IMG/VR virus record: IMGVR_UViG_3300027806_000001
Span: 32,001-96,000 of that record
Direction: 5' to 3' (one strand)
From: a virus
DNA: 64,000 bases
In this document: in pieces, positions 21,372 to 64,000 of the stretch
Layout of the letters: every line of letters starts with the position of its first letter
Numbering within the stretch: position 1 is the first letter of the stretch
Notes under the pieces: model-generated
Database searches by the model: none
Told to the model about the DNA's origin: nothing
Seen by the model: only the letters and a program-made list of their open reading frames with translations
Translations under genes and position numbers: made by a program

Positions 21372-23231
21372 TCAATAGGTGCCCTTCGGTCCCTTAGAGA
21401 TCTCGCCCGAGGCGAGGGCCGGGATCCACGACGTGCCGTGCAGCTGGGACGTCGAGCCCCGCTGGACGTTCTCGAGGAAGGTCTTCTTGAGGTTGAAACC
21501 TCCGAGCTGCACCATCCAGTCGCGGTCGCCCACCAGGGACTCCATCGCCCTGGTCATGGTCGGCTTGAACGGCGGCGGGTTCGGATGGGCGATCACCTCG
21601 TTGAAGCCGCTGTCCTTGAGTTCCTTGACGACCGACGGCGTGAGCCTGGTGCCGATCGAGTAGTGCATGACAGGCTTCTCCAGGTACTGGCCCTGGAACT
21701 TGCCGGGCTCGCCCACCTGGAATCCCTTGCGTGGCTCGTACTTGGCCGCCACGTAGTCGTAGCTGACGATGTCCTCGGGGTAGGCCCCTGGGATGGCGTC
21801 GGGCTCGGTGACCTCGACCTGGTTGATCAGGCCGCGGGCCACGACCTCGACGTTCCGCCGGTGGACCGGCAGGCCGTTCTCCTGGAGGGCGGACTTGAAC
21901 TGCTGGACGAACCGGCGCCGGGCCTCGCCGATGCCCTTGAGGTCGGCGATGTCCTTGGGGTTGATGACGCCGTCGGACAGGGCGTCGCCCGCCTCCAGGG
22001 TCTGGCCGGGCTTGACCGTGACGGCCTGCTCGGCCGGCACGTAGTAGCGCTCGTTGTTGACGTAGACGTAGTTGCCGCCCTGGGGAGCCGGCTCGATCTT
22101 GCCGACCGATCCGTCCACCTTGGACACGGGGGCGCCGTCGGTGAAGGTCTTGGGAACCTCGACCAGCTGGTTCAGGTACGCGAAGCCGGTGACGGTCCGC
22201 TTGGCCTTGCCCTTGGCGACGCCGCCTCCGTGCTTCGAGTTGAGCATGCCCTGGCTTACAGGTTCGGCGATGGCCTGCGCCGCGGTGATGCCGACGTTCA
22301 TGCCGGTCTCGGCCAGCTTGCCGTGCTCCCGTATGCCAGCGGCGATCCTGGGCAGGCCTCCCATGGCGCTTACCGCGGCGATCGGGGAGTAGACGAAGGC
22401 GCGCTTGACGCCCTTGGCGTTTAGCGCCTTGAGGACCTTGGAGTCGATGTAGGTGCCGCGCTTGAACTCGCCTTCGTCCCGGGCCAGCACCGAGCCGATG
22501 CTGTCAGGGTCGTCGGTCTCGACCATCAGGCCCTGGCCGTCCGGAATGTCCTCGTCGGTGGCCACCAGGCGGTGCGCGGCGGCGGTGAGGCGCTTGGCGA
22601 AGTAGCCCGCCTCGCCGACCGCCAGCTTGACGTCGATCGAGCCGGCCCGGGCGCCGTAGGATCCAGCCCAGTACTCGACCGGGTCCACGCCCTCGGCGTA
22701 GGAGTTGAGCACGGGAATCGGCACCGGCCGGCCCTTGTTGTCCGAGTAGAGCAGGTCCGTGCCGATCATGGACGCCAGCTGGTTCTTGTTGCCGCGGGCG
22801 CCCGCGAAGACCTGCATGGCGAATGGGTTGTCGTTCTTGAGCGCCTCCTGGTAGACGCCGTCGACCAGGTCGCCCTGGTACTTCAGGGCTGCATCGACGA
22901 TGCGTTCGTTCCGGATCTTCGGGTTCTGCTCGGAGCGGACGATCGCCCGGACCTCCTTGCGGAGCTCGTCGGCCAGCTTCTGCTTGATCTTCGGCGGCTT
23001 CAGGTCCTCGAGCGTGAAGCTGGACCTGGTGGACTGCCGGGCGCTCTTGAGGCCGGTCAGGGTCAGGCGATGGATCATCTCCCGGTACTCGTCCGGGTTC
23101 ATCTTCTGCGCCATGTCCGTGAGGAACTTGCGCATGGACGACTTGTCCCAGACGCGCTCGTAGTCGCGGTGCTCCTCCGGCAGCACGGAGTTGATCACGA
23201 GCTGCCCGACGGTGGTCAGCTTCGGTTCCAT
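21372..23231 (-). CDS. rpoC: DNA-directed RNA polymerase beta' subunit, C-terminal half
   Basis: TTVGQ (cf. TTVGR); AGARGNKNQLASMIG (SGARGSAAQIRQLAG); YGARAGSIDVKLAVGEAGYFAKRL (bridge helix, [24 protein letters not shown]); AAQAIAEPVSQGMLNSKHGGG (trigger loop); HRRNVEVVAR. Confidence 0.93.
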   Translation of the reverse strand: MEPKLTTVGQLVINSVLPEEHRDYERVWDKSSMRKFLTDMAQKMNPDEYREMIHRLTLTGLKSARQSTRSSFTLEDLKPPKIKQKLADELRKEVRAIVRSEQNPKIRNERIVDAALKYQGDLVDGVYQEALKNDNPFAMQVFAGARGNKNQLASMIGTDLLYSDNKGRPVPIPVLNSYAEGVDPVEYWAGSYGARAGSIDVKLAVGEAGYFAKRLTAAAHRLVATDEDIPDGQGLMVETDDPDSIGSVLARDEGEFKRGTYIDSKVLKALNAKGVKRAFVYSPIAAVSAMGGLPRIAAGIREHGKLAETGMNVGITAAQAIAEPVSQGMLNSKHGGGVAKGKAKRTVTGFAYLNQLVEVPKTFTDGAPVSKVDGSVGKIEPAPQGGNYVYVNNERYYVPAEQAVTVKPGQTLEAGDALSDGVINPKDIADLKGIGEARRRFVQQFKSALQENGLPVHRRNVEVVARGLINQVEVTEPDAIPGAYPEDIVSYDYVAAKYEPRKGFQVGEPGKFQGQYLEKPVMHYSIGTRLTPSVVKELKDSGFNEVIAHPNPPPFKPTMTRAMESLVGDRDWMVQLGGFNLKKTFLENVQRGSTSQLHGTSWIPALASGEISKGPKGTY

Positions 23232-24172
23232 CGCTCAAGCACCTCCGCCCCGCAGGGCATCGTGGCGACGCGCCGGTAGTGGGAGTACGGGTCGACCCTC
23301 GCCGACGCAGGCTTCTCCGTGCCGTAGGGCTGGCCGTTGACCAGGAAGCTGGGCGCCGTGTTGAACTGGATGTTCCCCATCGGCCCGCTTTTAGGCCGGT
23401 CAGGGGTGAAGGAACCCAGCAGGCTGCTGAATCCTGGCACCTTGCTGATCATGGTCAGCAGCCACTGCATGAAGTTGTTGGCCGGCTGGGCAAACCCGCC
23501 GAGGCCGGACGTCCAGTCCTTGAACGTGTTCGACAGGTAGTTCTTCGCGCCAAGGTCCTTGTAGTACCTCATGGCCGGAGAGTTAGGATCGAGGACCTTT
23601 TCCTTCAGCCGGGCTGTCATGGCCTCATGGGTGGCTGCGTTCATGCCGCCCAAGCCAAATGCTTTACCTGCGCGAAGCAGCGCCTGCTCACCCCAGCCTC
23701 TGTCGCCGAGGTCGATCGTCGCCTGCACGTCCAGCTTTTCATTGGGATTCAACGCCACCTGGCGGGCCAGGCCCCCCAGGGCCCTGACGCGGGCGGCACG
23801 GTCGGGATTCAGCCGCTCGAAGAGCCTGAAGCCCGCGTCGTCGTTCTCCAGACGACCTCCCCAGTACTTGAAGTCGGCCGCGGTATCGTCGACGAACTTC
23901 TCCATGCCCTGCCGCCCATCCCAAATTGAGACGTTAAAGTCGCGGGCAGGAATATTAAGGCCATAGACTCTAGGAGCCTGCGGAGCCTGCTGGGCCTGCG
24001 GAACCTGCGGAGCCTTCGGGGCCTGCTGAACCTTCGGGGCCTGCTGGACCTGAGGAGCCGGAACCTGCGGAGCCTGCTGGGCCTGAGGAGCCGGAACCTG
24101 CGGGGCCTGCTGAGGCGAAGCCGGTACGGTCTGGGCCAGCTTGAGGAGGAACGTCCGGGTAAGGTCATCCAT
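23216..24172 (-). CDS. Hypothetical protein with QQAPQVPAP repeats and K-x-A leader
   Basis: MDDLTRTFLLKLAQT, then Gln/Ala/Pro repeats. Overlaps the start of the beta'-C gene by 16 nt. Confidence 0.6.
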   Translation of the reverse strand: MDDLTRTFLLKLAQTVPASPQQAPQVPAPQAQQAPQVPAPQVQQAPKVQQAPKAPQVPQAQQAPQAPRVYGLNIPARDFNVSIWDGRQGMEKFVDDTAADFKYWGGRLENDDAGFRLFERLNPDRAARVRALGGLARQVALNPNEKLDVQATIDLGDRGWGEQALLRAGKAFGLGGMNAATHEAMTARLKEKVLDPNSPAMRYYKDLGAKNYLSNTFKDWTSGLGGFAQPANNFMQWLLTMISKVPGFSSLLGSFTPDRPKSGPMGNIQFNTAPSFLVNGQPYGTEKPASARVDPYSHYRRVATMPCGAEVLERWNRS

Positions 24173-24404
24173 TCTTCAGGTCCACCACGTGAAGCTTTGC
24201 GTCGTCGACGGCCATGCCGGTGATGCGGCGGACCTCCGCGGCGAACTCGGGCTGGCCGACGTGGGTGAAGGAGTAGGTGCCCGCAGGGGTCAGCGTGACG
24301 GCGAACAGAACCCGGTCCTGGTCGTCGTAGACCAGCACCGAGCCGACGTCCTTCTCGTACTTCGGCGGAACGAGGATGTTGGCCTTCTGCGTCCTGACTC
24401 TCAT
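24165..24404 (-). CDS. Small hypothetical protein
   Basis: 79 aa, overlapping both neighbours, good codon bias. Confidence 0.6.
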   Translation of the reverse strand: MRVRTQKANILVPPKYEKDVGSVLVYDDQDRVLFAVTLTPAGTYSFTHVGQPEFAAEVRRITGMAVDDAKLHVVDLKNG

Positions 24405-24931
24405 CGGAGGAAGTCCATGGCGGCCCTGACCAGGCTGGCCGCGTCGTCGTCGCCTTCGAAGGAAGCCTGGGCGACCATTCCCGGCGGGGGAGCCGCCGGC
24501 AGGCCCATCATCGAGGGATCCATGGGCATTCCCTGCGGGGGAGCGCCCGGGGGCGGACCCATGGGGGGCATGCCGGCGCCCGGCGGCATCATGGTCTGCA
24601 TCATGGCCATCTGGGCGTCCATGAGCTGCTGGACCATCTGCTTGAGGGACTGGACCTCGACGAACAGGTCGGCCGGAGTGGGCTGAGGAGCCCCGCCGCC
24701 CATCATCGAGGGATCCATGGGCATTCCCTGCGGGGGAGCGCCCTGGGGAGGCATTCCGCCCATCATCGAGGGATCCATGGGCATTCCCTGCGGGGGAGCG
24801 CCCTGCGGGGGAGCGCCCTGCGGGGGAGCGCCCTGCGGGGGAGCGGCTGGGACGCCGCCCGGCGCCGCCACGACGGCCTGCTTGAAGGGACCGCCCGGGC
24901 GAAGCATGTGTTGCGTGAAGAAGTCGGGCAT
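24401..24931 (-). CDS. Pro/Gly/Met/Gln low-complexity protein
   Basis: Tandem GAPPQ and PPQGMPMDPSMMG repeats around one short coiled coil. Confidence 0.6.
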   Translation of the reverse strand: MPDFFTQHMLRPGGPFKQAVVAAPGGVPAAPPQGAPPQGAPPQGAPPQGMPMDPSMMGGMPPQGAPPQGMPMDPSMMGGGAPQPTPADLFVEVQSLKQMVQQLMDAQMAMMQTMMPPGAGMPPMGPPPGAPPQGMPMDPSMMGLPAAPPPGMVAQASFEGDDDAASLVRAAMDFLR

Positions 24932-24940
24932 GGTCGCGCC

Positions 24941-24948
24941 ATTCTACC
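24941..24948 (-). promoter_or_regulatory. Candidate late -10 element GGTAGAAT
   Basis: 9 nt upstream of ATG 24931, the same geometry as at 16247. Confidence 0.45.
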
Positions 24949-24980
24949 CTTTTCCCGCAAATGGCCCCAACACGAAGCCG

Positions 24981-25769
24981 TCAGGCGGTTCCCGAGAGCG
25001 GATTGTAGGGATTCAAGGGTCCGTCGATCGGGATGATCGACTCGCCCTCGTCCCCCGGGAGCAGTCTGGCGACCTTGAAGTCCGAGACGCAGACGCGGGT
25101 CGAGCATCGGATGGAGACCGGACCGGCCTCCATGCGGATCTCAGGGACGATGAGTCCGGAAAGGTCCCCTGGCCTGGTGGACCTGTCGAAGGCCTGGACC
25201 GAGAGCTGGGCGCCTCCGGCCAGACCCTGGCCTGCATCGAGCGCGGCGCCGGAAGTGGCAAAAGAGAGCCGGCAGGAAGGAGGCCTGTCGGAGAACAGGG
25301 ACTTGGCCGTGCCCAGCGGCGGCCGGGCGGGGGCGGTGGAGCCCGTGTCCAGCGAGGCTGCGGCAGACCCCTGAAGGAAGCAGGGCAGCTCCAACTCGGG
25401 AGCGGAGCCCGGCGGACCTACCTCCAGGCAGCCGTACGGCGTGTCGCAGTCGGCTCCGCCCCGGATGTCCAGCGCCGCGGCGGCCGGATCCGGAGAAATC
25501 GGGAACGCCATCCAGGCGCGGACCTTGGCCGTCTCGAGCTCGGCCCTGGCGGGAGCCGGGATCAGGTTGAACGTGACGAATCCCAGTTCGGCCCGGCCGG
25601 TCGCCGGCAGAGTCTGGGACCCGGTGAAGAGGACGATCTGGGCGGAGCCGTAGAACCCCATGTGGGCCGGGCCCGCCTGGAAGGACACGGTCGCCGTGCC
25701 GTTGAATCCATGCATCGGCCCGGCGGACATGGAGATCGAGGCGTTGGCGAAGAGCGGGATCGTCGGCAT
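24981..25769 (-). CDS. Hypothetical tail-associated protein
   Basis: 262-aa ORF with SD AGGA, downstream of the Cys-rich module. Confidence 0.5.
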   Translation of the reverse strand: MPTIPLFANASISMSAGPMHGFNGTATVSFQAGPAHMGFYGSAQIVLFTGSQTLPATGRAELGFVTFNLIPAPARAELETAKVRAWMAFPISPDPAAAALDIRGGADCDTPYGCLEVGPPGSAPELELPCFLQGSAAASLDTGSTAPARPPLGTAKSLFSDRPPSCRLSFATSGAALDAGQGLAGGAQLSVQAFDRSTRPGDLSGLIVPEIRMEAGPVSIRCSTRVCVSDFKVARLLPGDEGESIIPIDGPLNPYNPLSGTA

Positions 25770-25778
25770 CGGTCGTTC

Positions 25779-26189
25779 CTAGGAGTGCCATCGGCCCTGG
25801 GGACAGGTGGCGGCGGGCAGCCGGGCCTTGCGGGAGAGCTCGGCTGCCGGCGAGTCGCCGCAGCCGCACTTGGTGCAGTGCCCGACGGGATCTCCGGGCT
25901 TGCGGTACTCGCACGTCATGCAGGCCGAGATCCGGGCCTGGATCTGCTCCTCCGTGATGGAGGACACCAGGGCGCTGGCCTCGGCCTTTGCCCAGGACGC
26001 CGCGCGCGCAGGCAGGGAGGGGACGGGACGCGGCACCGGCTGGGGCCGGGGGACGCCCTGGTCGCACTCGGAGCAGTTCATGGGGTCGACGCCCAGCCGG
26101 CACAAGGGGGACGTTCCGGCAAGGGACCAGTGCACGCAGTCCGCGCAGTCGACCAGGGTTCCGTTGATGCTCAGCTGGACGATCCTCAT
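25779..26189 (-). CDS. Cys-rich small protein (DUF6171-like, R..AC..C...C..CGC...K....CP..W)
   Basis: Start re-called at MRIVQLSING (ATGA overlap). C-terminus RISACMTCEY...HCTKCGC...KARLPAATCPQGRW. Confidence 0.6.
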   Translation of the reverse strand: MRIVQLSINGTLVDCADCVHWSLAGTSPLCRLGVDPMNCSECDQGVPRPQPVPRPVPSLPARAASWAKAEASALVSSITEEQIQARISACMTCEYRKPGDPVGHCTKCGCGDSPAAELSRKARLPAATCPQGRWHS

Positions 26190-28705
26190 GTCACGGTTAC
26201 CGTAGAAGGGGGAGTCCAGGCGTTGAAGCAGCCGCAAGCCATGAAGGACCCGTAGCCGGTAAGCGGATCGTAGAGGGAGTTGTCCCAGGCGAGCGGACCC
26301 ATGGACGCCAGAGGCAGCGGCGTTCCGTACACCTCGACCGACGTCGGACCGATGTAGGCCGTCGCGACGGCCCGGCAGGCGTCCACCGAACTGCACGAGC
26401 ACCCCGCAGGCCCGTTGAACTCTCCTCCGTAGCCTGTCCAGTCGGACTCCAGATTCCAGGCAGAGGAGTGCCTGCAGTAGATCTGGGAGACGGTGGTGCT
26501 GACGGGTACGACCTGAACCTCGTCCCCGGGCGCAACGCCGCTCCAGTCGCAGCAATCGGCTCCCGGAGGCAGCGACCTGTAGCGAGGTCCCCACCAGAAG
26601 TTGCCGGCAGCCGAGGCGGTCACCCTGTCGCCCAGGACCTCGTTGATCCTGGCGGCGAACGAGGAGACCCTGCCGCTGCCGTAGAACCTGCAGCCGCTGG
26701 AAAGAGTCGACGAGCCGTCGGCTATCACCACCTCGCCCTCACCGCTGGCCGAGAGCCAGTTGTCGTCGTCGGCAGGGCACGTCCTGGTTATGGTCATGGC
26801 CAGGCTGAAGGAACCCGACGGGACGGCCTGCACGAGGCGCAGGTTGGACTCGATGAGCCGCTTAGGGCAGGTGCAAGGCCAGGTGCACGGATTCGGGTTG
26901 CCCGGTTGGGCGCATATTCCGATCGAGGTGCTGGCCCGGGGAAGATCGCACGGAGGCCCCAGTCCGTTGGCGCAGCCGCACTTGGGGTGGTTGCCGAAGC
27001 ACTGGGGGTGGGACTTGTCGCCTATGGGCGTGCCGTAGAGGCAGGGAGTGCGGTAGACGTGGGGAACAGGACCAGGGGTGACGTTTGGAACGCAGGCCTG
27101 GAACCCGGCTCCGCACCACGGATAGGCTGAGGCGTCCCAGGTGACGGTGCACGAGTCGCCCAGCTGCAGGCCTCCCACGAAGACCTCCGGCCCGACCTCC
27201 CACTCGTTGGGTTCCGCGGACGGGAAGCAGTCCTTGAGCTCCCAGCCTGTGCCGACGTTCCTGGGCAGCGTTTCCGAGGCGGCAGGGCACTCGGCGTTCA
27301 ACGACAGCGAGGTGTACAGGTAGTCGCAGCCCTGGTACTGGACGAAATAGCATTTGCCGGGGTCCGGGGTGCAGACGGGACTGGGAGGCAGCGCCAGGTC
27401 GCGACGGTACTTGTCGCACATGTAGATGAACGGAGGGCAGTTCCCGGAGTCGCATCTGCGGGTGCATAGCCCGGTGCTCGGGGTGGCCTTGGGCAGTTTC
27501 CAGACCCGGCAGCAGTAGTCGCTGAACGAGGTCCAGAATCCGCCGGATAGGTCGCTGGAGGTCACGACGCGGCTGCAGGGCCTCGGAGGCTCGATCTGGG
27601 AGCCCTGGGGATTTATGTAGAACGGCCAGTTCTTGTAGTTGAAGGCTATGAACTGAGGGTTGATGGGATCCGGAACGCAGGGATTGCTCCCCGCCGCGGC
27701 CAGCAGGTTGTCCAGCTGGGTCTGGGTCAGGCAGATGTGCAGGGCGGGCGGAACGCCTGCCGGCATCTCCGGACACGGGCAGTTTCCGCACGCCCTCCAC
27801 TCGAACACGACCCTGCCGTCGAAACCGGAGGTCAGGCCTCCGTCGCCTGTTCCGCGCTGAAGGTTCTTGGAGGTGAACGGACTGGCCTGCGCGTAGCTTG
27901 AAAATCCCTCGTGAGCAAGAAAGATGTTGTTGGTGAGCGAGGAACCCCCCGTCCCGGCTCCCCCATAGGTGACGGCGCCGACGGTCCTGGTGCCGCCTCC
28001 ACCTCCGCCAGCCTGGCCACCTCCGCCTCCGCCTCCGCCTGTAGTCGATCCGCTGGCGCCCGTTCCACCTGAGCCAGGGCTGGGCAGGTTTCCAAGAGAG
28101 CCTGTGCCTCCGAAATCGATTCCGCCTGCGCCTCCGTTGGTGGTCGTGGATCCTCCGGCGACGGCGATGTCGGTGGCAGGTCTTGCCGATGCGGAGATGC
28201 CTGCGTCGCCACCGCGGGATGTCTGGGACGTCTGGCTGGTGAAGTTGGGCGACCCTGCGGCACCGCCTCCCCCGGCGACGAAGTCCGTCGAGGTGTTCAA
28301 CCTGAAGGCGCTGGCTCCGCCGCCCCACCTGGTGTTGGACGCACCCGACGCCCCTCCAAACGGAGCTCCGCCGGAGGTGTTGTCGACCGGCCCGCCCTTC
28401 GCCACCCGCACAAACATCGACGTGGCCGGAAAGGTGACCTGGCTTTCCACGTATGCCCCGGCGCCGCCAGGGTCCGTTCCGTTGCCTGCTCCTCCTGCTC
28501 CAATCAAAACCACCCTGGATACCGTTCCCGAAGGAGGGTTGCTGTCGTCGGTCGAGGCTCCGCTGGCTATGAACGTCTGCGCGTTCCCCGGATTCTGACT
28601 GTTTATGAAGAACGTCCGCTGCTGCCTGTTCCAGCAGGGGTAGGCGATGTACATCTGCTCCGGACCCCCGCAGCAGCAGGGGGCGGCCATGATGGTCTGA
28701 GGCAT
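26186..28705 (-). CDS. Receptor-binding/adhesin-like protein: ALK/LTK-type Gly-rich domain plus very Cys-rich C-terminal region
   Basis: Starts MAAPCCCGG. Contains LIGAGGAG...GGAGAYV...WGGGASAFRL...FVAGGGGAAG...GGGGGGGQAGGGGGG, followed by dozens of Cys. Confidence 0.6.
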   Translation of the reverse strand: MPQTIMAAPCCCGGPEQMYIAYPCWNRQQRTFFINSQNPGNAQTFIASGASTDDSNPPSGTVSRVVLIGAGGAGNGTDPGGAGAYVESQVTFPATSMFVRVAKGGPVDNTSGGAPFGGASGASNTRWGGGASAFRLNTSTDFVAGGGGAAGSPNFTSQTSQTSRGGDAGISASARPATDIAVAGGSTTTNGGAGGIDFGGTGSLGNLPSPGSGGTGASGSTTGGGGGGGGQAGGGGGGTRTVGAVTYGGAGTGGSSLTNNIFLAHEGFSSYAQASPFTSKNLQRGTGDGGLTSGFDGRVVFEWRACGNCPCPEMPAGVPPALHICLTQTQLDNLLAAAGSNPCVPDPINPQFIAFNYKNWPFYINPQGSQIEPPRPCSRVVTSSDLSGGFWTSFSDYCCRVWKLPKATPSTGLCTRRCDSGNCPPFIYMCDKYRRDLALPPSPVCTPDPGKCYFVQYQGCDYLYTSLSLNAECPAASETLPRNVGTGWELKDCFPSAEPNEWEVGPEVFVGGLQLGDSCTVTWDASAYPWCGAGFQACVPNVTPGPVPHVYRTPCLYGTPIGDKSHPQCFGNHPKCGCANGLGPPCDLPRASTSIGICAQPGNPNPCTWPCTCPKRLIESNLRLVQAVPSGSFSLAMTITRTCPADDDNWLSASGEGEVVIADGSSTLSSGCRFYGSGRVSSFAARINEVLGDRVTASAAGNFWWGPRYRSLPPGADCCDWSGVAPGDEVQVVPVSTTVSQIYCRHSSAWNLESDWTGYGGEFNGPAGCSCSSVDACRAVATAYIGPTSVEVYGTPLPLASMGPLAWDNSLYDPLTGYGSFMACGCFNAWTPPSTVTVT

Positions 28706-28866: not shown

Positions 28867-28885
28867 GCTGCGTCTCCTCATGACA

Positions 28886-28909: not shown

Positions 28910-28940
28910 GTGTTCGTTCAAGGCCGGAGGCCTGGTCCTG

Positions 28941-50889: not shown

Positions 50890-50917
50890 ATTCTCACACG
50901 CGCGCCCCCGCTGTTTA
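50890..50917 (-). promoter_or_regulatory. Early-type promoter TAAACA-N16-GAGAAT
   Basis: TAAACA GCGGGGGCGCGCGTGT GAGAAT. Confidence 0.7.
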
Positions 50918-52864
50918 GCGGGTGGATTGCGGGGCCCAGACGCCCACGCAGTTCTCCGCGATCCACGTGAACAGCTCGGCCTTGAGGTCGGACTGGCTGC
51001 TCATGAGCCTGCGGAGCTCCTCCCACTGCGCCTGGGCGATCTCGTCGGTGCCGTAGAGGATCGACCCCGAGGCCAGCTCCTCGTCGAGGATCCGGAGCTT
51101 GTCGAAGTCGCCGCGGATGAACGAGACGTCGATGCCCATCTCCCTGAGCCTGGGGCTGATCATGCGCGCGGCCCGGACGGCGTAACCGTCGCGGATGTCC
51201 TCGAGCTTGTACTCCTCGCCCAGGAGCTCCTGGTCGACGCCTTGCTCCTCCAGGACGGACGAGACGATCGCCTGCAGCTGCTCCAGCCGGGTCTGGCCCG
51301 AGGCCGGATCCAGGGGCACGGCCAGCGCCTCGACCAGGGACGCGTGGATCGCCTGATGCACGGCCGGGCCAAGCACCTGGTCGAGCGGCACGGCCTTGCC
51401 CTCCGCCTCCGGCTGCTTGCCCTTGCGGGAGCTCTTGCCGGTGGCCTTGGGGAACGCCGTGACCAGGATGGGATCGGCCATGTCGTTGATCTGCATCAGG
51501 ATCAGCAGGCAGTTCGTCCTGTCGGTCAGGAACTCCCGCTTGTCCAGCTCCTGGCCCTCCACGGGGTCGGGCAGCATGGGCACGTAGTAGTCGACCTTGA
51601 CGCTATTCTTCAAGGATATGTTGTCCGCGGTTACGAACTTGCGGAATGCACGGCCGATCGTCTGCACGGCTAGGGACGAGCTGCCCTCGGGCGACGTGTG
51701 GTGAATGCGGGAGCAGGGGCACCAGTCGGTGCCCTCGCGGCCCAGCATGCACGTGACCACGACGTCGAACTTGGAATCGCCGTCCTCGGGCTTCTTGGGC
51801 TCCTGCAGCAGCAGGGCCTTGTGAGCGTCCTGGGTGGCCCGGGTGACCAGGTCCAGGATCCGGACGCCGGGCCAGGCCGCCCGGATGTCGTCCATGAGGG
51901 CGCGGATCTGGCCGGTCTCGTCCTGGCCCTTGCCGGCCTTGTCCTCGGTGCGCCACTTCTGGCCGATCGACGGAACGATGACCAGGTGCTTCTGGTCCTG
52001 CTCGCTGGCGATCGCCTGGACGACGTCGACCAGCGGGCCCTGCTCGTGCTCGTACTCGAGGAACTGCACCCGGAAGTCCGCGATCTTCAGAGTCTTCCAG
52101 TGGTCGATCCAGTCGCGCCAGTAGGTCGTGAAGCGGCCCTTGATGGAGTCGTCCAGGATCGCCGTCTGGTCGCCGCGGAACGGCGTGGCGGTCGTCAGCT
52201 GCAGCCGGGCCGAGTCCGCGGCCGGACGGCTAAGGACGAAGTTGCAGATCTTGCCCAGCTTGACCGACTCCTCCGTGCCCTCCTTTTCCGTGACGCCGTT
52301 GACGTGGTGCGCCTCGTCGATGCGGATCGTCAGGTTGCGCACCGCCTGGGCGCGCTCCGTGGCGTCCAGCTCCGACCAGAGGCGGGCCAGGGCGGCGTGG
52401 GAGGTGACCGCCGAGACCAGGCCCGAGCCGTCGGACTGGCGGAGGAGCCAGCGCTTCAGGTCGGCCATGATGGTCGGCGAGGAGGTGTTGCAGAAGTCGT
52501 GGCGGATGGCCCAGGTGAGGGTCTCCCACGTGGTGCGGATCTGGACCTCGGCGCCGTCGTCCCACTTGCTGAAGCCGCCGGAGATGTGGCTCTGCGGCAC
52601 GACGATGAGCTGCCGCTGGCGGAACCTCGTGTGCTCGGCCTCGTAGGCCGCGAGGGCGCACTGCAGGGTGGACTTGCCCGCGCCGCAGGGGGCGACGAGG
52701 AAGCTGTGCTCCGCGAGGTGCAGCTTGAGGAAGGCGTCGGGCTGCCAGTCCCGGAGCTCGCGGACGCCGGAGACGGCCTTGGGCTCGAGGACGATGGTGC
52801 TCCAGGTCGGGTTGGTGCCCGAGGTCGAGAGACGTGAGTTGCTGCGTGTCTTGGTCTTGTTCAT
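50915..52864 (-). CDS. Superfamily 2 (DExD/H, Res/UvsW-like) helicase/ATPase
   Basis: Q motif LRDWQ; I APCGAGKS; Ia LIVVP; II IDEAHH; III TATPFRGD; V GREGTDW; VI QTIGRAFR. Confidence 0.9.
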   Translation of the reverse strand: MNKTKTRSNSRLSTSGTNPTWSTIVLEPKAVSGVRELRDWQPDAFLKLHLAEHSFLVAPCGAGKSTLQCALAAYEAEHTRFRQRQLIVVPQSHISGGFSKWDDGAEVQIRTTWETLTWAIRHDFCNTSSPTIMADLKRWLLRQSDGSGLVSAVTSHAALARLWSELDATERAQAVRNLTIRIDEAHHVNGVTEKEGTEESVKLGKICNFVLSRPAADSARLQLTTATPFRGDQTAILDDSIKGRFTTYWRDWIDHWKTLKIADFRVQFLEYEHEQGPLVDVVQAIASEQDQKHLVIVPSIGQKWRTEDKAGKGQDETGQIRALMDDIRAAWPGVRILDLVTRATQDAHKALLLQEPKKPEDGDSKFDVVVTCMLGREGTDWCPCSRIHHTSPEGSSSLAVQTIGRAFRKFVTADNISLKNSVKVDYYVPMLPDPVEGQELDKREFLTDRTNCLLILMQINDMADPILVTAFPKATGKSSRKGKQPEAEGKAVPLDQVLGPAVHQAIHASLVEALAVPLDPASGQTRLEQLQAIVSSVLEEQGVDQELLGEEYKLEDIRDGYAVRAARMISPRLREMGIDVSFIRGDFDKLRILDEELASGSILYGTDEIAQAQWEELRRLMSSQSDLKAELFTWIAENCVGVWAPQSTR

Positions 52865-56120: not shown

Positions 56121-56131
56121 GATGTTCCTCC

Positions 56132-56747: not shown

Positions 56748-56748
56748 G

Positions 56749-56822
56749 CGTCCGCACCAGGACTTGAACCTGGAACCGCCTCGTTAGGACCGAGATGCGC
56801 TATCCAATTGCGCCATGCGGAC
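56749..56822 (-). tRNA. trnR: tRNA-Arg (anticodon CCT)
   Basis: GTCCGCA TG GCGC AATTGGATA GCGC A TCTCG GTCCTAA CGAGG CGGTT CCAGG TTCAAGT CCTGG TGCGGAC G: full cloverleaf, CCA not encoded. Confidence 0.9.
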
Positions 56823-56832
56823 AACAAGCTTT

Positions 56833-56859
56833 CATTCTATCCAGCTGAGCTAAGAGGGC
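56833..56859 (-). pseudogene. tRNA 5'-half remnant (acceptor strand plus D-arm)
   Basis: GCCCTCT TA GCTC AGCTGGATA GAAT G, with an Arg-like D-loop. It also reads as TTGCCC-N16-TAGAAT. Confidence 0.5.
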
Positions 56860-56894
56860 AAAACCCCTGGCGGCCCGGATGAAGCCGCCAGAGG
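56860..56894 (-). terminator. Rho-independent terminator
   Basis: CCTCTGGCGGC-9 nt-GCCGCCAGGGG followed by TTTT. Confidence 0.65.
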
Positions 56895-56951
56895 CAGAAA
56901 AGAAAAGCGCGCCCGCATGCAACCTTGACGGCTACGCGCGGTGCGCACTTT

Positions 56952-56979
56952 ATTCTAACCTGCGAGGTGGGGTTGTTTA
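56952..56979 (-). promoter_or_regulatory. Early-type promoter TAAACA-N16-TAGAAT
   Basis: TAAACA ACCCCACCTCGCAGGT TAGAAT, overlapping the stop of the upstream gene. Confidence 0.65.
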
Positions 56980-57687
56980 GCCCTTCTTCTTGTTCTTCTT
57001 TTTGCCCTTGGACTGCGCCCTGGCCAGCTCGGCCGCCTGCACCTTGTCATAGGCGCGGGTTCCGTAGTAGCCCAGCGGAAGTCCGGCGGCGATCAACCCT
57101 CCGGCGATGTCTCCGCCCACGGCGGCAAAGGGCTTGAAGCCGTATTCGCTGGCCTCCTCGGGATCGATCCGACCCTTCATGGCCTCGATGGCCTTGGCCC
57201 GGCCGAGGTCGTGGGATCCGCCCAAAAAGAACAAAGACGAACTGGGCTCGAAGGCCTGCGGCTTCTTGGATCGAGCCTTGTCGAACTTCGCGGCGATGTC
57301 GTGCATCTTGTTGCGACGGATGGCCGACGCGATGAGATGGCCCAGGAACGCGCCGGCGACGCCTCCCCCGATCGCTCCCAGGCCCTGGACGTCGGGATCG
57401 CCGCTTGCCAGGTTGCCTATGCCATAGCCGGCCCCTGCGCCGAGGGCTATTCCCGGCAAGGTCATCAGGGCTCCGCTGGTCAGCGGGTTCTTGACGAAGA
57501 AGCCTGGATCCTCGCCGATGGCCTCGGCCATGGCGGTGGCCCGGCCTGGCCTGGACTCGAAGGCCGTGTTCCAGCCGGCAGGCCCCCAGTAGTCGCTGAA
57601 CAGACCTCCGCCCGAATCCATGTCGAGCAGTTCCTTGGCCTTGAGGGCCTGCTTGTAGCCAGGGAGATGGTGGAAGTAGTATGACAT
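56977..57687 (-). CDS. Glycine-zipper protein with YYxH...KQA leader
   Basis: MSYYFHHLPGYKQA. Hydrophobic GIALGAGAGYGIG, GLGAIGGGVAGAFLG, GGLIAAGLPLG. Confidence 0.7.
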   Translation of the reverse strand: MSYYFHHLPGYKQALKAKELLDMDSGGGLFSDYWGPAGWNTAFESRPGRATAMAEAIGEDPGFFVKNPLTSGALMTLPGIALGAGAGYGIGNLASGDPDVQGLGAIGGGVAGAFLGHLIASAIRRNKMHDIAAKFDKARSKKPQAFEPSSSLFFLGGSHDLGRAKAIEAMKGRIDPEEASEYGFKPFAAVGGDIAGGLIAAGLPLGYYGTRAYDKVQAAELARAQSKGKKKNKKKG

Positions 57688-57690
57688 GGT

Positions 57691-58182
57691 TTAGCCCTTG
57701 ACCTGAGCCTTGCTCTTCTGCTTCTTCTTACCTATCGAGTCGATGAGCTTGTCCGCGAGGAGGTAGCCGCCGAGGCCGCCTGCGCCTGCACCGAGGAGAC
57801 CTCCTCCGCCCAGCCCAAGGAGGGCGGAGCCGCCGGCGCCTGCCGCTTCGTCCATGTTGTGCCTCATCATGGCATCGGCTTCTTCGGCGGACCGAGCCTG
57901 CGTGGGGTCGACGCCGTCGAATCCATGGGCCTTGACTCCGGTGTACGCGCCAAGGCTTGCGCCCGTCAGGCCGCCCAGGATCATGCCCAGGTCCGCGCCC
58001 ATGCCCTTGCCTGCGCCGCGGAGGATCTCCCTGAAGATCGGCTCGTCGTCGTCCGCCGCGGCTCCGTGGATGAGCGCGCTGACGGTGGTGCCGATGAGGG
58101 CCTGCTTGCTGCGGGTCTGCTCGCCGTAGAGGCGCTCGAGGTTGGCTGCGATCTTGATCATGGGTGTTCCGGGATAGGTCAC
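57691..58182 (-). CDS. Glycine-zipper protein with K-x-A leader
   Basis: MTYPGTPMIKIAA...SKQA. GMILGGLTGASLGAY and GLGGGGLLGAGAGGLGGYL. Confidence 0.7.
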   Translation of the reverse strand: MTYPGTPMIKIAANLERLYGEQTRSKQALIGTTVSALIHGAAADDDEPIFREILRGAGKGMGADLGMILGGLTGASLGAYTGVKAHGFDGVDPTQARSAEEADAMMRHNMDEAAGAGGSALLGLGGGGLLGAGAGGLGGYLLADKLIDSIGKKKQKSKAQVKG

Positions 58183-58628
58183 CGCTGGAGCGGCATGTTT
58201 TGAATTCCTCGGGCATCGGCGAGCGACTGAGCGCCCGGCCGGAGGTTGGCTCCAAGGAGCTCAGCCTCGACCAGGCCCCTAGCCGCCTGATTCATCTCGG
58301 GAGTGTTGGGGTTGCGAGGATCATTCATGAGGGTGTCCACCAGGCCGAGCAGCGCCTGGCGCTTCCTGTCGGCTCCGGTCATCTGGCCGTAGGCTGCGCC
58401 GAGGCCGGCGCCCGCCAGGCCTCCGATGCCTCCGCCGACCATGGCGTCGTTGAGCCTGTAGTCGGTTCCGACGATGCCGGTCGCCTGTCGTCCCAGAGGA
58501 AGCAGCGCTGAATTCATGGAGTTGATTTCGTTTGCGGCAGCCTGATTAGCGGCCCGCCCGGCCTGGGCGATCTGATCCTGGATGCCTGCGCGCTTGGTGC
58601 GGGGAAGGGGGTGGGAGTAGTAGGCCAT
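58179..58628 (-). CDS. Glycine-zipper protein with YYxH...KRA leader
   Basis: MAYYSHPLPRTKRA. GGGIGGLAGAGLGAAYG. Confidence 0.7.
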   Translation of the reverse strand: MAYYSHPLPRTKRAGIQDQIAQAGRAANQAAANEINSMNSALLPLGRQATGIVGTDYRLNDAMVGGGIGGLAGAGLGAAYGQMTGADRKRQALLGLVDTLMNDPRNPNTPEMNQAARGLVEAELLGANLRPGAQSLADARGIQNMPLQR

Positions 58629-58636
58629 GGGTGTCC

Positions 58637-59269
58637 TCAGCTGAAGCGTTCGTAGCGTCGGATTATATCGGCAAATCGCTTATCGCTCTTTGCGCGGTTC
58701 CTGGCGATGGCATGGCCCGCGAGGCCGCCCAGCAGGGCGCCCAAGGTGCCCGCGCCTCCGGCCTCGAGCACCGGGGTCAGCGTCGGGCCGAACTTGTCGT
58801 GGCCCGCGGCGTAGGCGCCGGCGCCCGTGCCCAGGGCGGCCAGCAGGCCCGAGACGACGGCCCACCTGGTGGAGGTGCCGCTGATGTCGTCCAGCAGCTC
58901 GCGCTCCCTGGGGGTGAAGGACTCCTCGGCCTCCTCGAGGCGTCCCTTTTCCTTGGAGTAGAGATGGGTCTGGCCCATGAGCTTGCCGATGGCCAGGCCG
59001 GCCAGGGCGCCCGGCAGGCCTCCCCCGAGGTAGTACCCGGCTGCCGCGCCCGGCACCGCGTAGGCGCCCTGGTAGAGGGCCGTGTCGCCGAGCTCGAGCA
59101 GGCGCTCCTTGTTCATCAGCGACGGGCCGAAGTACTGCTGCTTCAGGTCCTCGTAGCCCCGCAGCGGGGTCTGTCCGCGATCGGCCTTGCCGACGGTGAC
59201 CCGCTCGACCGCGGTGCCGGGCAGCGAGGCGACGTCCTGGATGTTGCGCAGGTAGGGATCGGCCGGCAT
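58637..59269 (-). CDS. Glycine-zipper protein
   Basis: GAAAGYYLGGGLPGALAGLAIG, GLLAALGTGAGAY, GAGTLGALLGGLAG. Confidence 0.7.
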   Translation of the reverse strand: MPADPYLRNIQDVASLPGTAVERVTVGKADRGQTPLRGYEDLKQQYFGPSLMNKERLLELGDTALYQGAYAVPGAAAGYYLGGGLPGALAGLAIGKLMGQTHLYSKEKGRLEEAEESFTPRERELLDDISGTSTRWAVVSGLLAALGTGAGAYAAGHDKFGPTLTPVLEAGGAGTLGALLGGLAGHAIARNRAKSDKRFADIIRRYERFS

Positions 59270-59272
59270 TCG

Positions 59273-59782
59273 TCACCTCTTCAACTGGCCGTACAACTCG
59301 AACGGATCGACCACGCCGCGCATCGGATTTCGCTCGCTGTTCCACCGGTTGTAGGCATCGACGGCCATGGTCGGCCCCTGGCGCCGCGCGATGGAGGAGG
59401 CGCTGTCCGAGATGCTCTGGCCCAGGTGGCCGGCCTGAGCAGACTGCTTCCCAAGGCCTGACAGCGAGTGGCCGTAGGGCTGGTTGCTCAGGTAGAAGGG
59501 GGCCTGGGAGACAGGCGGAGGAACGGCTGCGGCAGGCAGGTCGGCCGGCGCAGGAGGTCCCACGAAGTCAGGATGGCCGTAGGAGATCACAGGACTGGCG
59601 GCCGGATGACGCAGGGAGTCGCGGGCTGGATTGTACGCGACCGGCTTGTTGAACTTGGTGAGGTTCTTCGCGGCCATGAACGGAGAGCTTCTGGTGGTCC
59701 GGCTGACCGCCTCGAGGAATTTGGCCACGCCGTCGGCCGGGCCTGCCGAGGACTTCACATGGTGGGAGTAGGGTCGGGTCAT
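59273..59782 (-). CDS. Pro/Ala-rich protein with PYSHH leader
   Basis: MTRPYSHHVKSSAG. ATGA-coupled to the RNAP gene stop. Confidence 0.6.
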   Translation of the reverse strand: MTRPYSHHVKSSAGPADGVAKFLEAVSRTTRSSPFMAAKNLTKFNKPVAYNPARDSLRHPAASPVISYGHPDFVGPPAPADLPAAAVPPPVSQAPFYLSNQPYGHSLSGLGKQSAQAGHLGQSISDSASSIARRQGPTMAVDAYNRWNSERNPMRGVVDPFELYGQLKR

Positions 59783-62700
59783 TCCAGGATCCTGACCGTG
59801 TCGGTCGCCGACACCTCGCCGCGGTTGAACGCCTTGATGGCGTCCTCGCGGGTGCGGAAGGTCTTGGCCACGTTCTTGTCGGCCTTCTGCCGGCTGGCCA
59901 GGTACAGGCCGTAGAGGAACTCGTTCTTGATGAAGGGCTGCGCCTGGAAGGTCGCCGCCGAGAGCAGGTTGCGGCTAGGCAGCATCTTGCGGTAGGCCTC
60001 GTCGACCGCGGCCTGGGTGCTGGGCACGTGCAGGCGCATCTGGTCGCCGTCGAAGTCCGCGTTGAAGCCGACGACGACCGACGGGCTCAGCCTAAGGGTC
60101 GGCCCCGCGGTGAGCACCGGCCTGGCCGCCATGAAGTTGTACTTGTGCAGCACGGGCGCGCGGGTGATCATCACCGGGCGCCGCTGCATCTCGGCCAGCA
60201 GGGCGCGGTTGGCGGTGGGCGTCCTGGACTCCACCTGCTTCATGGCCTCGAGGGGCGACGCCCCGCTGGCCACCAGGGCGCGCACCACGTACGGCCTGAA
60301 GACCGAGTAGGCCATGTCCTCGGGCACGCCCACGTGGTCCATGTCCAGGGACGGATCCGGGGTGATGACCGCGTTGCCGACGCCCTCGACGGTCGAGGAC
60401 AGCACCTTGCGCTGGAACATCGAGAACTTGGGGTTGCTGCCCAGGATGTGCCGGATCAGGCCGTTGACGTTCTTCTGGCGCAGCTTGGCGCTGGCGGGAT
60501 CCGCCAGGCCGACCGTGGCCTTGACCATGTTGTACAGCGCCAGGCGCTCCTTGCCGGACGCCTCCTGGCCGAGCTCGCCCTGCAGGTCCTTCAGGTTGCG
60601 GTTCATGCCGAAGAGCTCCTTGTACAGGTAGTTCATGTCGGCGACCATCTGCATGTTGCCCGTGTCGGTGATGGGCCGGAACCGCGGCGGCAGCACCGGC
60701 ATGTCCTCCCAGAGGAAGTCCGACGGCTTGAGGTTCCGCTTCGTCATGCCCTCGAGGTACGAGAGCCTCGAGATGGCGTTGCTGCGGCGCTGGCCCCTGG
60801 CGGTGGCGATCTCCTTGCGGGCCATCTCGGCCTCGGCCTTGAGGTCCATGCCGCCGAGGCGCTGCTCCAGGCCCGCCATGCCGTCCACGCCCTTGACCTT
60901 CTCGCCTGAGATGACCCGCTCGAGGTCCTTCTTGGTGAAGCCCATGAGCGACCTGACGGCGTCCTCCATGACGGGGTTGACCACCTTGGCCGCCAGGGGG
61001 AAGTGGCCGAACTTCGACTGGTTGGTGCCGAAGATCTTGTCGTCGAAGAAGCCGCCGTCGTAGGCCTTGCCGGTGCGGAAGTCGATGTCCCGCGGATCCT
61101 GGATCTCGCCGCCCGAGAGCTTCTTGACGTCGGAGCCGGTCATGCCATAGATGTTCACGGCGCCGCCCTGGCGCTCGACGTTGACGCCGGCGCCCTTCAG
61201 CTGGGAGACGAACTTGTCCCAGACGAACGGCACGTTGACCGCGGGGACGGGGGTGCCCATCTTGACCGCGCGCCAGTACTCGTCGTTCTTCTGGCCCCGG
61301 ACCAGGCGGGCGTCCTTGATGACGTCGATCGCGCCGTGGGCCAGCAGGGCGTTGATGTCGCTGATGGAGATGCGCTTGGCGCCCTCCTCGCCGCCCTTCA
61401 CGGGGGCCTCCTCGGTGCTGTAGCCTCCGAGGTCGCGGGCCGTGAGCTTCTTCTCCGCCTGGTGGTGCAGGTTCATGAAGTAGCGGTTGCCGGTGAAGAT
61501 GCCCTCGATGTTCCGGCCGAGCCTGGGATCGAACAGCGTCTCGGTGTCGGTCAGGCCGTTCTTCTTCAGCTCGCGCTGGGCCATGTCGATGTAGGACTCG
61601 TCGACGAAGGCCGGCAGCTTGTAGGGCACCCCGGTCTTCACCGCGATCTTGCCCAGGGCGGCCTCGACGGCCTGCACCGGGTTGACGCGGCTGGTGAGCG
61701 CCAGCGGGTTGAAGGCGATCTCGTAGGGGTTGCCGTCCTTGTCCTGCGGCATGTCCTTGTCGTCGACCACGGCCGAGACGACGCCCTTGTCGCCGTACCT
61801 GCCGACGAGCTTGTCGCCGACGCCCATGGGCTTGTAGCTCTTGATGGCCACCTGCCAGCCGCTGCGGGTGCGGGTGACGTCGGTGACGACGCCGGGCTGG
61901 CTGTGGTCCCAGGTCTGCGCCCGGTTGCTGTACGCCGGGCGGGTGCGCTTGACCAGGCCGAAGGTGTCGCCCTGGCGCTCGCCGACGCCCAGGATGACCG
62001 GGTCGCCGGGATTGACCATGGTGCCGACCTTGACGACGCCGGACCCGGCGTCGATGGCCTTGAGCTGCTCCTGGGAGTAGACGCCTGGGAACAGCGAGAC
62101 GAACCGGGAGTAGTCGGCCGAGTAGTCGTCCTTGGAGTCGTAGCCGATGGTGTACATGTGCTCCGAGGACATCTTCTCGGCCGCGGTCTTGGACATCACC
62201 ACGCCGTCCTCGAAGTTGGCGCCGCCGAGCTCCGGGTCGCCCCACACCGTGTAGGCCACGCGCAGGTTCTTGCCCATGGCGAGCCGGCCCTTGTCGTCGG
62301 TGTAGTTCGACTTGGCCAGGAGCTGCCCCGGCTGCACCTGGTCGCCCACCTTGACCATCGCCGTGTTGTGCAGGAACGTGTTGTGAATGACCAGGCCGCA
62401 GTTCACGGCGAAGACGTGGCTGTTGGCCACGGTGAAGTCGTAGACCCGCTCCTCGGCAGGCGCCTCGACGACCTCCTCGACGATGTCCCACATGACGTCG
62501 GACTTCGCCCAGGCCTCGAACGGACCCCTGGCGTTTTGGCGCGACACCTTTCCTGCGGATGCGTCCTTGTAGGCGCGCATCGGAACATCGTGCTCAAACC
62601 CGGCATAGACCAGCTGCCTGCTCTTGGCCGGCAGCGGTATGAACTCGAACACGGAGGTTCGGTAGGAAGAAGACCTCAACGACGAAAGTTTGAGGTTGCG

Positions 62701-64000
62701 GTCGGAATAGAGGAACCACTTGTCCAGCTTGGCCAGATGCGTCGAGATGACCCTGAGGCCGTAGGCATCCGCCCAATTCGGATTAGTGGAACTGAGCTGC
62801 CTGTCGGAAAGAACCGTGGAGAACACCCCGAGGCCGGACAGAAGATCGATGAGAGCGTCACGCATGGCGCGGGAAGTGGTCCATGCTTCCAATTGAACCG
62901 CGCCATTCGAGTCCTCGTGCAGGCATCCGTCGCCTGCGAAATAGCCTGCGACAAGGCCATGCCTGAACGCTTCGGAGCGGTCGAAGGCTCTTTCGGACGG
63001 ACACTTGTGAGCGCTGCCGTGGCCAAATTCAGCCACCAGCCACGACGCCACTTCGGAGGAGGTAAAGCTGACCTTGCCGGCGTCCGCCTTGTTGTCGTGA
63101 GGCTTCAAGCCCAGTTGAACAATCAGTTGCTCGAGTTCAGCCCTGCGAGAAGCATCCTTCACCGCGAGGATGACCATGTTCGGCTGCGAAGGCGGAACAT
63201 GGCCCTCGGCCAGGTAGATGCCGGCCAGAAGACCCCATTCGTGGGAATCGCGTTTATCGACGGAGTCCTTCGGATTGTCCATTGCGCATACCGGCAGTCG
63301 AGTCGTGCCGACCACGCACTCGTCCGGGTACAGGGGCACCAGCTTTCCGTCCTCTCCCATGGTGACCAGGGAGTGGTCCTCGGTGACGACCACGGTCCTG
63401 CCACCGCGGGTGCGCACCTGGACCATCCTGCGGTCGTTGGTCAGCTCGACGAAGGCCGTCACGGGCTCCCACGAGGACCTGCAGGTCTCCGGATCGATCG
63501 AGCGGATGAGGTCTCCTGCCGCGAAGGCGTACTGGTCCGCGCGCACGTGCATCCTGCGGTCACCCCGCAGAATCCACACCTTGGTGGACCCCTTGACGCA
63601 CTTCCTGTTGAACGGGAAGTTGTTGTAGGTCTCGTACCTGCGCTTCGTCTTGCCGTGCTTCACCTCGACGAAGTCCGGGTCGACCGCGGTGACGACGCCG
63701 GGGCCCAGCTCCTTCTCCGCCGTCACGGCCGCCAGGGCCGACTGCAGCTGCTCCTCGTAGGCGCGGCCCTCGGGATCCTCGGAGTCGAGGCCCTGCACCA
63801 GGGGCGACTCGGCGTCCCGCACCGGCAGGGCCTGGGTGAAGTACTTGCTGCCCATCAGCAGGCGGCCGCCCTTGATGCCCGACACGCCGGGCACGAGGTT
63901 CGAGTTCACGTTGAACATCGCGTTGTGCGACGGCAGCTCGAACTGCACCGCCTTGGGGTCGACGTAGGAGATCTCGCCGCCGACCATGGCGCGGACCATG
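59779..64000 (-). CDS. rpoBC: Fused RNA polymerase beta (C-terminal part) + beta' N-terminal half, intein-containing; 5' end outside the window
   Basis: Beta motifs: RLLMGSKYFTQALPV, GANFEDGVVMS, GDKLVGRYGDKGVV, NPLALTSRVN, HQAEKKLTAR, GAKRIS. In frame and with no stop, beta' motifs follow: GFFDDKIFG, PVLPPRFRP, RAPVLH, NADFDGDQM (60043-60063). Confidence 0.95.
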   Translation of the reverse strand, partial: MVRAMVGGEISYVDPKAVQFELPSHNAMFNVNSNLVPGVSGIKGGRLLMGSKYFTQALPVRDAESPLVQGLDSEDPEGRAYEEQLQSALAAVTAEKELGPGVVTAVDPDFVEVKHGKTKRRYETYNNFPFNRKCVKGSTKVWILRGDRRMHVRADQYAFAAGDLIRSIDPETCRSSWEPVTAFVELTNDRRMVQVRTRGGRTVVVTEDHSLVTMGEDGKLVPLYPDECVVGTTRLPVCAMDNPKDSVDKRDSHEWGLLAGIYLAEGHVPPSQPNMVILAVKDASRRAELEQLIVQLGLKPHDNKADAGKVSFTSSEVASWLVAEFGHGSAHKCPSERAFDRSEAFRHGLVAGYFAGDGCLHEDSNGAVQLEAWTTSRAMRDALIDLLSGLGVFSTVLSDRQLSSTNPNWADAYGLRVISTHLAKLDKWFLYSDRNLKLSSLRSSSYRTSVFEFIPLPAKSRQLVYAGFEHDVPMRAYKDASAGKVSRQNARGPFEAWAKSDVMWDIVEEVVEAPAEERVYDFTVANSHVFAVNCGLVIHNTFLHNTAMVKVGDQVQPGQLLAKSNYTDDKGRLAMGKNLRVAYTVWGDPELGGANFEDGVVMSKTAAEKMSSEHMYTIGYDSKDDYSADYSRFVSLFPGVYSQEQLKAIDAGSGVVKVGTMVNPGDPVILGVGERQGDTFGLVKRTRPAYSNRAQTWDHSQPGVVTDVTRTRSGWQVAIKSYKPMGVGDKLVGRYGDKGVVSAVVDDKDMPQDKDGNPYEIAFNPLALTSRVNPVQAVEAALGKIAVKTGVPYKLPAFVDESYIDMAQRELKKNGLTDTETLFDPRLGRNIEGIFTGNRYFMNLHHQAEKKLTARDLGGYSTEEAPVKGGEEGAKRISISDINALLAHGAIDVIKDARLVRGQKNDEYWRAVKMGTPVPAVNVPFVWDKFVSQLKGAGVNVERQGGAVNIYGMTGSDVKKLSGGEIQDPRDIDFRTGKAYDGGFFDDKIFGTNQSKFGHFPLAAKVVNPVMEDAVRSLMGFTKKDLERVISGEKVKGVDGMAGLEQRLGGMDLKAEAEMARKEIATARGQRRSNAISRLSYLEGMTKRNLKPSDFLWEDMPVLPPRFRPITDTGNMQMVADMNYLYKELFGMNRNLKDLQGELGQEASGKERLALYNMVKATVGLADPASAKLRQKNVNGLIRHILGSNPKFSMFQRKVLSSTVEGVGNAVITPDPSLDMDHVGVPEDMAYSVFRPYVVRALVASGASPLEAMKQVESRTPTANRALLAEMQRRPVMITRAPVLHKYNFMAARPVLTAGPTLRLSPSVVVGFNADFDGDQMRLHVPSTQAAVDEAYRKMLPSRNLLSAATFQAQPFIKNEFLYGLYLASRQKADKNVAKTFRTREDAIKAFNRGEVSATDTVRILE
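62380..63600 (-). mobile_element. Intein with LAGLIDADG homing endonuclease, 407 aa, in the RNAP beta moiety
   Basis: Starts C-VKGST, block B VTEDHSL, endonuclease motifs GLLAGIYLAEG and GLVAGYFAGDG, ends VYDFTV...VIHN followed by Thr. Removing it restores FNRK/TFLHNTAMVKVGDQV, which aligns with RpoB SNQNTCINQ.P.V..GE.V. Confidence 0.93.

Follow-up and report, generated by a model that had tools for sequence, protein, structure and literature searches.

A multisubunit RNA polymerase (RNAP) whose large subunits are both fused and split is encoded by two genes in the viral genome IMGVR_UViG_3300027806_000001, a 183,468-bp IMG/VR record with direct terminal repeats that is rated complete. The first gene runs the whole of the beta subunit into the N-terminal part of beta-prime in a single open reading frame (ORF); the second supplies the remainder of beta-prime. 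The window analysed here is a stretch of 64,000 nucleotides, bases 32001-96000 of that record; positions refer to this window unless marked as genome positions, and those beyond 64,000 are window-equivalents. The two genes belong to a real, widespread, and apparently undescribed variant of phage multisubunit RNAP, of which this genome is an ordinary member that stands out solely by the wide separation of the genes and by an intein. Our favored reading, to which we assign a probability of roughly 70%, is that their products make up a sigma-dependent, alpha-less, two-chain RNAP that is probably carried in the virion.

Structure and sequence support of the two polymerase genes

The fused gene lies on the minus strand at 59779-64000 and continues past the window to 65883, where it starts at an ATG (genome position 97883); its product has 2034 aa, of which 1627 lie outside the intein. 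An earlier reading of the window, made from its letters alone (hereafter the sequence-only reading), had called for flanking sequence to find the beta N-terminus, and with that sequence beta proved to be full-length. The same reading had placed the passage from beta into beta-prime within one ORF and near position 61170, and both statements were borne out. Pfam domains follow one another along the ORF as Rpb2_3, an intein with LAGLIDADG endonuclease, Rpb2_6, Rpb1_1, and Rpb1_2, and alignment with the Escherichia coli subunits (BLASTP, MAFFT) covers beta 48-1338 and then beta-prime 30-515. The beta portion (61186-64000 within the window, minus strand) reaches a C-terminus that aligns to E. coli beta ~1338-1342, and the junction (61144-61185, minus strand) joins it to beta-prime ~19 through a linker of about three residues. 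Compared with E. coli, the fused chain lacks the first ~18 residues of beta-prime and, downstream of the junction, the N-terminal zinc-binding domain (E. coli beta-prime ~64-96). Solved structures give the same picture: the beta part aligns with a beta chain of 1269 residues, stopping no more than three residues short of its end, and the part after it aligns with beta-prime, and with the cyanobacterial gamma subunit to residue 550 of 624.

The beta-prime N-terminal part (59782-61143, minus strand) contains the clamp helices (60505-60639) and, in the double-psi barrel, the NADFDGD motif (60043-60063; aa 1941-1947 of the fused protein). A hairpin near E. coli beta-prime 554 terminates this part, and the chain closes at aa 2034, 87 residues beyond NADFDGD. 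The second gene, on the same strand at 21372-23231, encodes a protein of 619 aa (beta-prime C) identified by alignment to bacterial beta-prime and to solved structures. It begins just five residues ahead of TTVGQ (23202-23216; E. coli 572-576), as the sequence-only reading had proposed in placing the split immediately before TTVG, and covers E. coli beta-prime ~570-1267, including the bridge helix (22572-22655) and the trigger loop, whose first arm with the conserved His lies at 22221-22283; the SI3 insert is absent from the trigger loop. A Shine-Dalgarno sequence precedes the gene, and its start overlaps an upstream ORF of 318 aa. Each catalytic element is preserved: NADFDGD, the beta double-lysine motif (61783-61818), the bridge helix, and the trigger-loop His.

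The phage was found in freshwater and lake metagenomes from at least 10 studies (2017-2025). Two further studies yielded contigs (12,350 nt and 2,128 nt) that span the beta/beta-prime junction with few substitutions and no indel, and no insertion or deletion occurs in any of the four contig runs compared with the locus; the frameshift that the sequence-only reading had named as grounds for rejecting the fusion did not appear. Since independent contigs are free of indels and at least 162 independently assembled metagenomic clusters carry the same fusion, the fusion is not an assembly artefact. Third-position GC is 0.94 in the fused ORF and in the beta-prime C ORF alike. A weak 477-nt 'joint' in a single contig was set aside, its shorter side comprising only 21 letters. 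Four contigs (151-215 nt) from a freshwater metatranscriptome library match the fused gene at 60469-62048 with zero mismatches, which is compatible with expression; they may also reflect carry-over of DNA.

The intein occupies 62380-63600 on the minus strand (407 aa; aa 762-1168 of the fused protein) and was recognized by PF14890 and PF14528, that is, with both Hint and LAGLIDADG domains. Its first residue is Cys, its last two are His-Asn, and Thr stands at the +1 position as nucleophile; two LAGLIDADG motifs are present. An empty-site allele was found in a 96%-identical metagenomic relative (P0004), the length of which, 1627 aa, equals that of the fused protein minus the intein. The insertion site in beta aligns near E. 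coli residue 750-755, and the intein would have to splice out before the active center could form. Homologues of both chains carry inteins at other sites, with lengths of up to 3257 aa for the fused protein and 1000 aa for beta-prime C. In the N-terminal half of beta, aa 263-424 of the fused protein (~64612-65097, past the window), a stretch of ~160 aa not present in a 40%-identical relative (G004), looks like a lineage-specific insertion.

Relatives, gene order, and known polymerases

The sequence-only reading had regarded the architecture as distinct; it is not particular to this genome: the layout is shared by hundreds of metagenomic clusters and, column for column, by cultured phages. Among deposited phages, tblastn found the same pair of genes in Salmonella phage Arash (gp206, 1525 aa, and gp216, 606 aa; 4.8 kb apart), in Vibrio phage D69 (0261, 1527 aa, and 0264, 609 aa; 0.6 kb apart), and in Vibrio phages D148 and D181. 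When this phage, Arash, and D69 were aligned with E. coli using MAFFT, the junction, the missing zinc domain, and the split fell in identical columns. A junction-restricted search recovered the at least 162 clusters of fused proteins already mentioned, and stand-alone beta-prime C proteins (~610-620 aa) make up at least 420. In about 100 of the 119 fused homologues examined, the chain ends within 0-4 residues of the same point. No description of the fusion-plus-split layout was found in the searchable literature (subscription journals lay outside the scope of the search).

Variants of the layout also exist. Nine clusters encode beta and beta-prime as a single chain of ~2015 aa. Five of these were aligned at the split site, one showing a deletion there; since the other four run through it continuously, the fission is clean and sits at the tip of the hairpin. 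When a FastTree phylogeny was rooted on E. coli, the single-chain forms fell next to Arash and D69, nested within the split forms; support at the root is weak (0.66). Seven clusters start in mid-beta, combining beta(C) and beta-prime(N) with lysozyme and LysM tails, and among the variants of the family (P0084-P0090, P0038, and P0099-P0122) one chain bears a SET domain.

The genes encoding the two chains are 36,547 bp apart (23232-59778), in agreement with the distance of about 36.5 kb noted in the sequence-only reading. That reading had also called them unlinked; the wide distance stands, but the ancestral order and strand are kept and the corresponding genes of relatives lie about 1 kb apart. 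A beta-prime C homologue was located at 81 IMG/VR loci; at 69 of them the fused gene precedes it on the same strand, 0.9-8.5 kb upstream (median ~1 kb). Where the full 10 kb upstream could be read, the fused gene was absent from it only in the phage's own sub-clade (77-84% identical) and two others, and at one additional locus it was found on the downstream side of beta-prime C. A complete relative, 80% identical, has ~41 kb between the two genes when its record is treated as circular. The order of genes found by tblastn, all on the minus strand, is that of Arash: portal, fused gene, beta-prime C, gp218-like, gp222-like, and capsid gene.

Raw ORF lists and GC skew had made the interval appear an opposite-strand block, an impression overturned by third-position GC, which marks ~50 genes there, most of them small and almost all on the minus strand. 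Because the Arash-like order is preserved and homologues of the relatives' 'gap genes' lie at both edges of the interval, we read the 36.5-kb separation as probably derived, small genes having accreted into an ancestral gap of ~1 kb. Within the interval, a 649-aa protein (50915-52864, minus strand) gave weak ResIII and Helicase_C signals typical of superfamily 2 helicases; no kinship was detectable between it and gp217, the helicase encoded after beta-prime C in Arash. In many relatives (loci L050, L052, L067, L070, and L082; ~9030-9776) the fused gene is followed directly by a ~243-aa Pro/Gly/Ala-rich protein with one conserved helix, of which no homologue was found in this genome. Pfam searches of the beta-prime C neighbors returned no match, and PHROGs searches of ten neighboring proteins returned almost nothing.

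A scan for sigma-70 promoters and terminators yielded nothing useful near either polymerase gene. An extended -10-like box, TGnTATAAT, does occur at genome positions 97890-97898 (65890-65898), ending 7 nt before the ATG of the fused gene. TATAAT is found only eight times in the 183-kb genome, seven times on the gene strand; five copies are preceded by GC (four as TGnTATAAT), six are found no more than 50 nt upstream of a predicted start, and three, including that of the fused polymerase gene, stand 7-13 nt ahead of a start codon. The last spacing suggests leaderless mRNAs.

Arash and D69 are the closest counterparts among known systems. Like them, the present genome has the homologous junction, the split before TTVG with a separate ORF of the ~610-aa type, a sigma-like gene (described below), and polymerase genes placed between portal and capsid in the head block; the split column, the loss of the N-terminal zinc domain, and the order of the block are the same. 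Their RNAPs are nevertheless only 26-32% identical to that of this phage, their polymerase genes lie 0.6-4.8 kb apart rather than 36.5 kb, and they lack the intein, keep the second beta-prime zinc site, and read AADYDGD where this phage has NADFDGD. The paper on Arash (record OQ632216) names gp206 and gp216 merely beta and beta-prime (PMC10585845).

Each of the other known arrangements shares part of this architecture. The break between cyanobacterial or plastid gamma (RpoC1) and beta-prime (RpoC2) falls in the same connector and likewise leaves the Mg loop and the trigger loop on separate chains. It lies slightly further downstream, as the sequence-only reading had it, after a TTPGR-type motif: solved cyanobacterial beta-prime chains start at about residue 14-21 of the present beta-prime C protein, placing the break an estimated 13-20 residues beyond the one described here. 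In those systems beta is separate and the genes are adjacent. In Helicobacter and Wolbachia, rpoB and rpoC are fused head to tail, the beta C-terminus to the beta-prime N-terminus; these enzymes are cellular, their fused chain includes the whole of beta-prime, and they also have alpha and omega. The fused chain of this phage holds no complete beta-prime.

The phiKZ/AR9-type enzymes resemble the present one in being phage-encoded, in lacking alpha and omega, and in having beta-prime split after the double-psi barrel; their virion RNAP is packaged (PMC7598289). They differ in comprising two enzymes, virion and non-virion, with beta in two or three pieces, whereas here a single locus for each part specifies one enzyme with a whole, fused beta. 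The phiKZ/AR9-type enzymes also have no beta/beta-prime fusion and no sigma factor, the non-virion RNAP having a fifth subunit, whereas this genome has both the fusion and a sigma-like gene. The sequence-only reading had counted the location of the Mg loop and trigger loop on separate chains as part of a distinct architecture; it is common to every split after the double-psi barrel, in cyanobacteria and phiKZ-like phages alike (PMC7598289).

A link to the mReC lineage, which that reading had also raised, is not supported by the features compared. Those uncultured tailed phages do have bacterial-like beta and beta-prime, but as separate ORFs (920-1563 aa and 902-1370 aa, respectively, in Supplementary Data 2; in rounded terms, about 1000-1400 aa and 900-1050 aa), and they have T4-like capsid and portal genes (Weinheimer and Aylward 2020; PMC7481178). 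The mReC paper mentions fusion only for crAss-like phages and states neither fusion nor split for mReC (PMC7481178). Separate, usually adjacent beta and beta-prime genes were not found here, and the complete genome gave no match at E ≤ 1 to the Gp23-type capsid (PF07068) or to Terminase_6N (PF03237), two families by which the lineage was defined; divergent members can escape such profiles.

Partner proteins and the proposed enzyme

Profile searches of the complete genome returned one locus each for Rpb2_6, Rpb1_2, and Rpb1_5; therefore there is no second beta or beta-prime. A second full-length beta-prime was another finding that the sequence-only reading had named as fatal to its proposal. 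In the same genome, neither alpha (PF01000, PF01193) nor omega (PF01192) was found by profiles that were each positive in 14 of 14 control genomes. Outside the window, a 250-aa ORF (genome 13355-14107, minus strand) resembles a sigma factor, matching Sigma70_r3 at 25.9 bits (cut-off 25.3) and giving weak region 2 and region 4 signals. By BLASTP it matches the Arash sigma gp10 with an E value of 3e-11; it is conserved in two relatives (G001 and G004) and, like gp10 in Arash, is situated upstream of a gp13 homologue.

A further candidate component is a protein of 79 aa (24165-24404, minus strand), a member of a family of small ORFs (~72-90 aa) found in 73 of 81 related loci; in 62 of 63 cases the two polymerase genes flank it. 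The small ORF ends no more than 40 nt from the start of beta-prime C in 43 cases, a spacing at which the two would often be translationally coupled; in this genome the 318-aa ORF, specific to the sub-clade, sits between them. The predicted structure of the 79-aa protein (predicted local distance difference test score, 91) is a small beta-sheet with one helix. It belongs to no Pfam family, and its model had no clear fold match (best E of 0.95 with Foldseek; best Z of 3.1, to FHA domains, with VIA-align). A hidden Markov model of the family found no member in Arash, in D69, or in the searched parts of G004. A complex prediction with beta-prime C, made without control predictions, scored 0.00 and has no bearing on binding. 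The protein may be a small polymerase subunit or an assembly factor.

What the sequences show is a full set of beta and beta-prime with its catalytic motifs in place, divided between two chains and kept across wide divergence. The two large chains almost certainly form the core polymerase. In the mechanism that we propose, the first chain, matured by intein splicing, would contribute all of beta and beta-prime to the end of the double-psi barrel, with the Mg-binding NADFDGD; the second would contribute the remaining beta-prime, comprising the bridge helix, trigger loop, C-terminal clamp, and jaw. The chains would come together again at a surface hairpin, the very point at which single-chain relatives continue unbroken, and the covalent link between beta and beta-prime may stand in partly for the alpha dimer in assembly. 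Promoter recognition would most likely be given by the sigma-like protein. By analogy with Arash, the enzyme would travel inside the capsid and enter the cell with the DNA to carry out early transcription; later transcription would probably fall to the same enzyme, as the sole polymerase encoded.

Probable virion packaging and competing explanations

Carriage of the polymerase in the virion appears probable, if less secure than assembly of the core, and is suggested by three kinds of evidence: the virion proteins of Arash, the position of the genes in the head block, and the existence of lysozyme-tailed homologues. In purified Arash virions, gp206, gp216, the sigma gp10, and the helicase gp217 are among the most abundant proteins, and gp206 is the most-detected of all by mass spectrometry, with 3516 spectra (PMC10585845). 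The same data can be explained otherwise, by an enzyme made only after infection for middle and late genes, with the host RNAP serving the early ones and the Arash detection reflecting carry-over. The Arash paper itself raises carry-over (PMC10585845), and the TGnTATAAT box before the fused gene could be read by the host sigma-70 holoenzyme. Yet so high a rank among the detected virion proteins fits poorly with such an origin, both genes lie in the head-gene block in all genomes compared, and the lysozyme and LysM fusions of some homologues are typical of ejected virion proteins; we consider the non-virion explanation unlikely.

Head proteases process packaged proteins in large phages. The long chain might accordingly be a precursor, cut by a prohead protease, for example, into beta-like and beta-prime(N)-like pieces that would assemble as a conventional multi-chain core. 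Against such cutting stand the linker of only about three residues, its position conserved across relatives that are 25-40% identical, and the fact that natural and engineered beta/beta-prime fusions function uncut in bacteria. We regard the precursor explanation as quite improbable. The weakest alternative, that a frameshift or chimera joins rpoB and rpoC or that beta-prime C is a dead remnant, is refuted for practical purposes by the indel-free independent contigs, the numbers of fused and beta-prime C clusters, the coding signal of third-position GC in both ORFs, and the intact catalytic motifs, and no point was found in its support.

Several points do weigh against the two-chain, sigma-dependent, packaged enzyme that we favor. 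Packaging is extrapolated from a relative only 26-32% identical, this phage being known from sequence alone, and the Arash authors caution that an enzyme present in abundance could simply co-purify with virions (PMC10585845). The absence of alpha and omega was read from Pfam profiles, which divergent or unrelated substitutes could escape, and the sigma-like ORF barely exceeds one Pfam cut-off. Bearing on the stability of the fold, the second beta-prime zinc site is lost (22300-22700; E. coli C814, C888, C895, and C898 are all replaced), although its cysteines are retained in Arash and D69. Finally, perfectly matching contigs from an RNA library are no proof of transcription.

A bolder version of the favored reading would make the family a large, undescribed class of minimal RNAPs, each consisting of two chains and a phage sigma factor without alpha or omega, in which the covalent link replaces the alpha platform, the enzyme is injected and independent of the host RNAP, and the ORF of ~75 aa encodes a new subunit or assembly factor. 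Taken as a whole, this version is conceivable but doubtful.

Phage multisubunit RNAPs test how little of the cellular enzyme suffices for transcription and are sources of host-independent transcription systems. The present family keeps beta and beta-prime sequences that can readily be aligned with those of bacteria, together with a sigma-like factor, yet does so without alpha, omega, or the N-terminal zinc domain and with its large subunits re-partitioned. In this genome, a 36.5-kb gap demonstrates that co-transcription of the two halves is not required, and the intein adds a third maturation step for the polymerase. The family raises the questions of whether a covalent link makes alpha dispensable, how sigma acts on such a core, and whether the enzyme is injected; since cultured members exist in Arash and Vibrio phage D69, these questions are directly testable.

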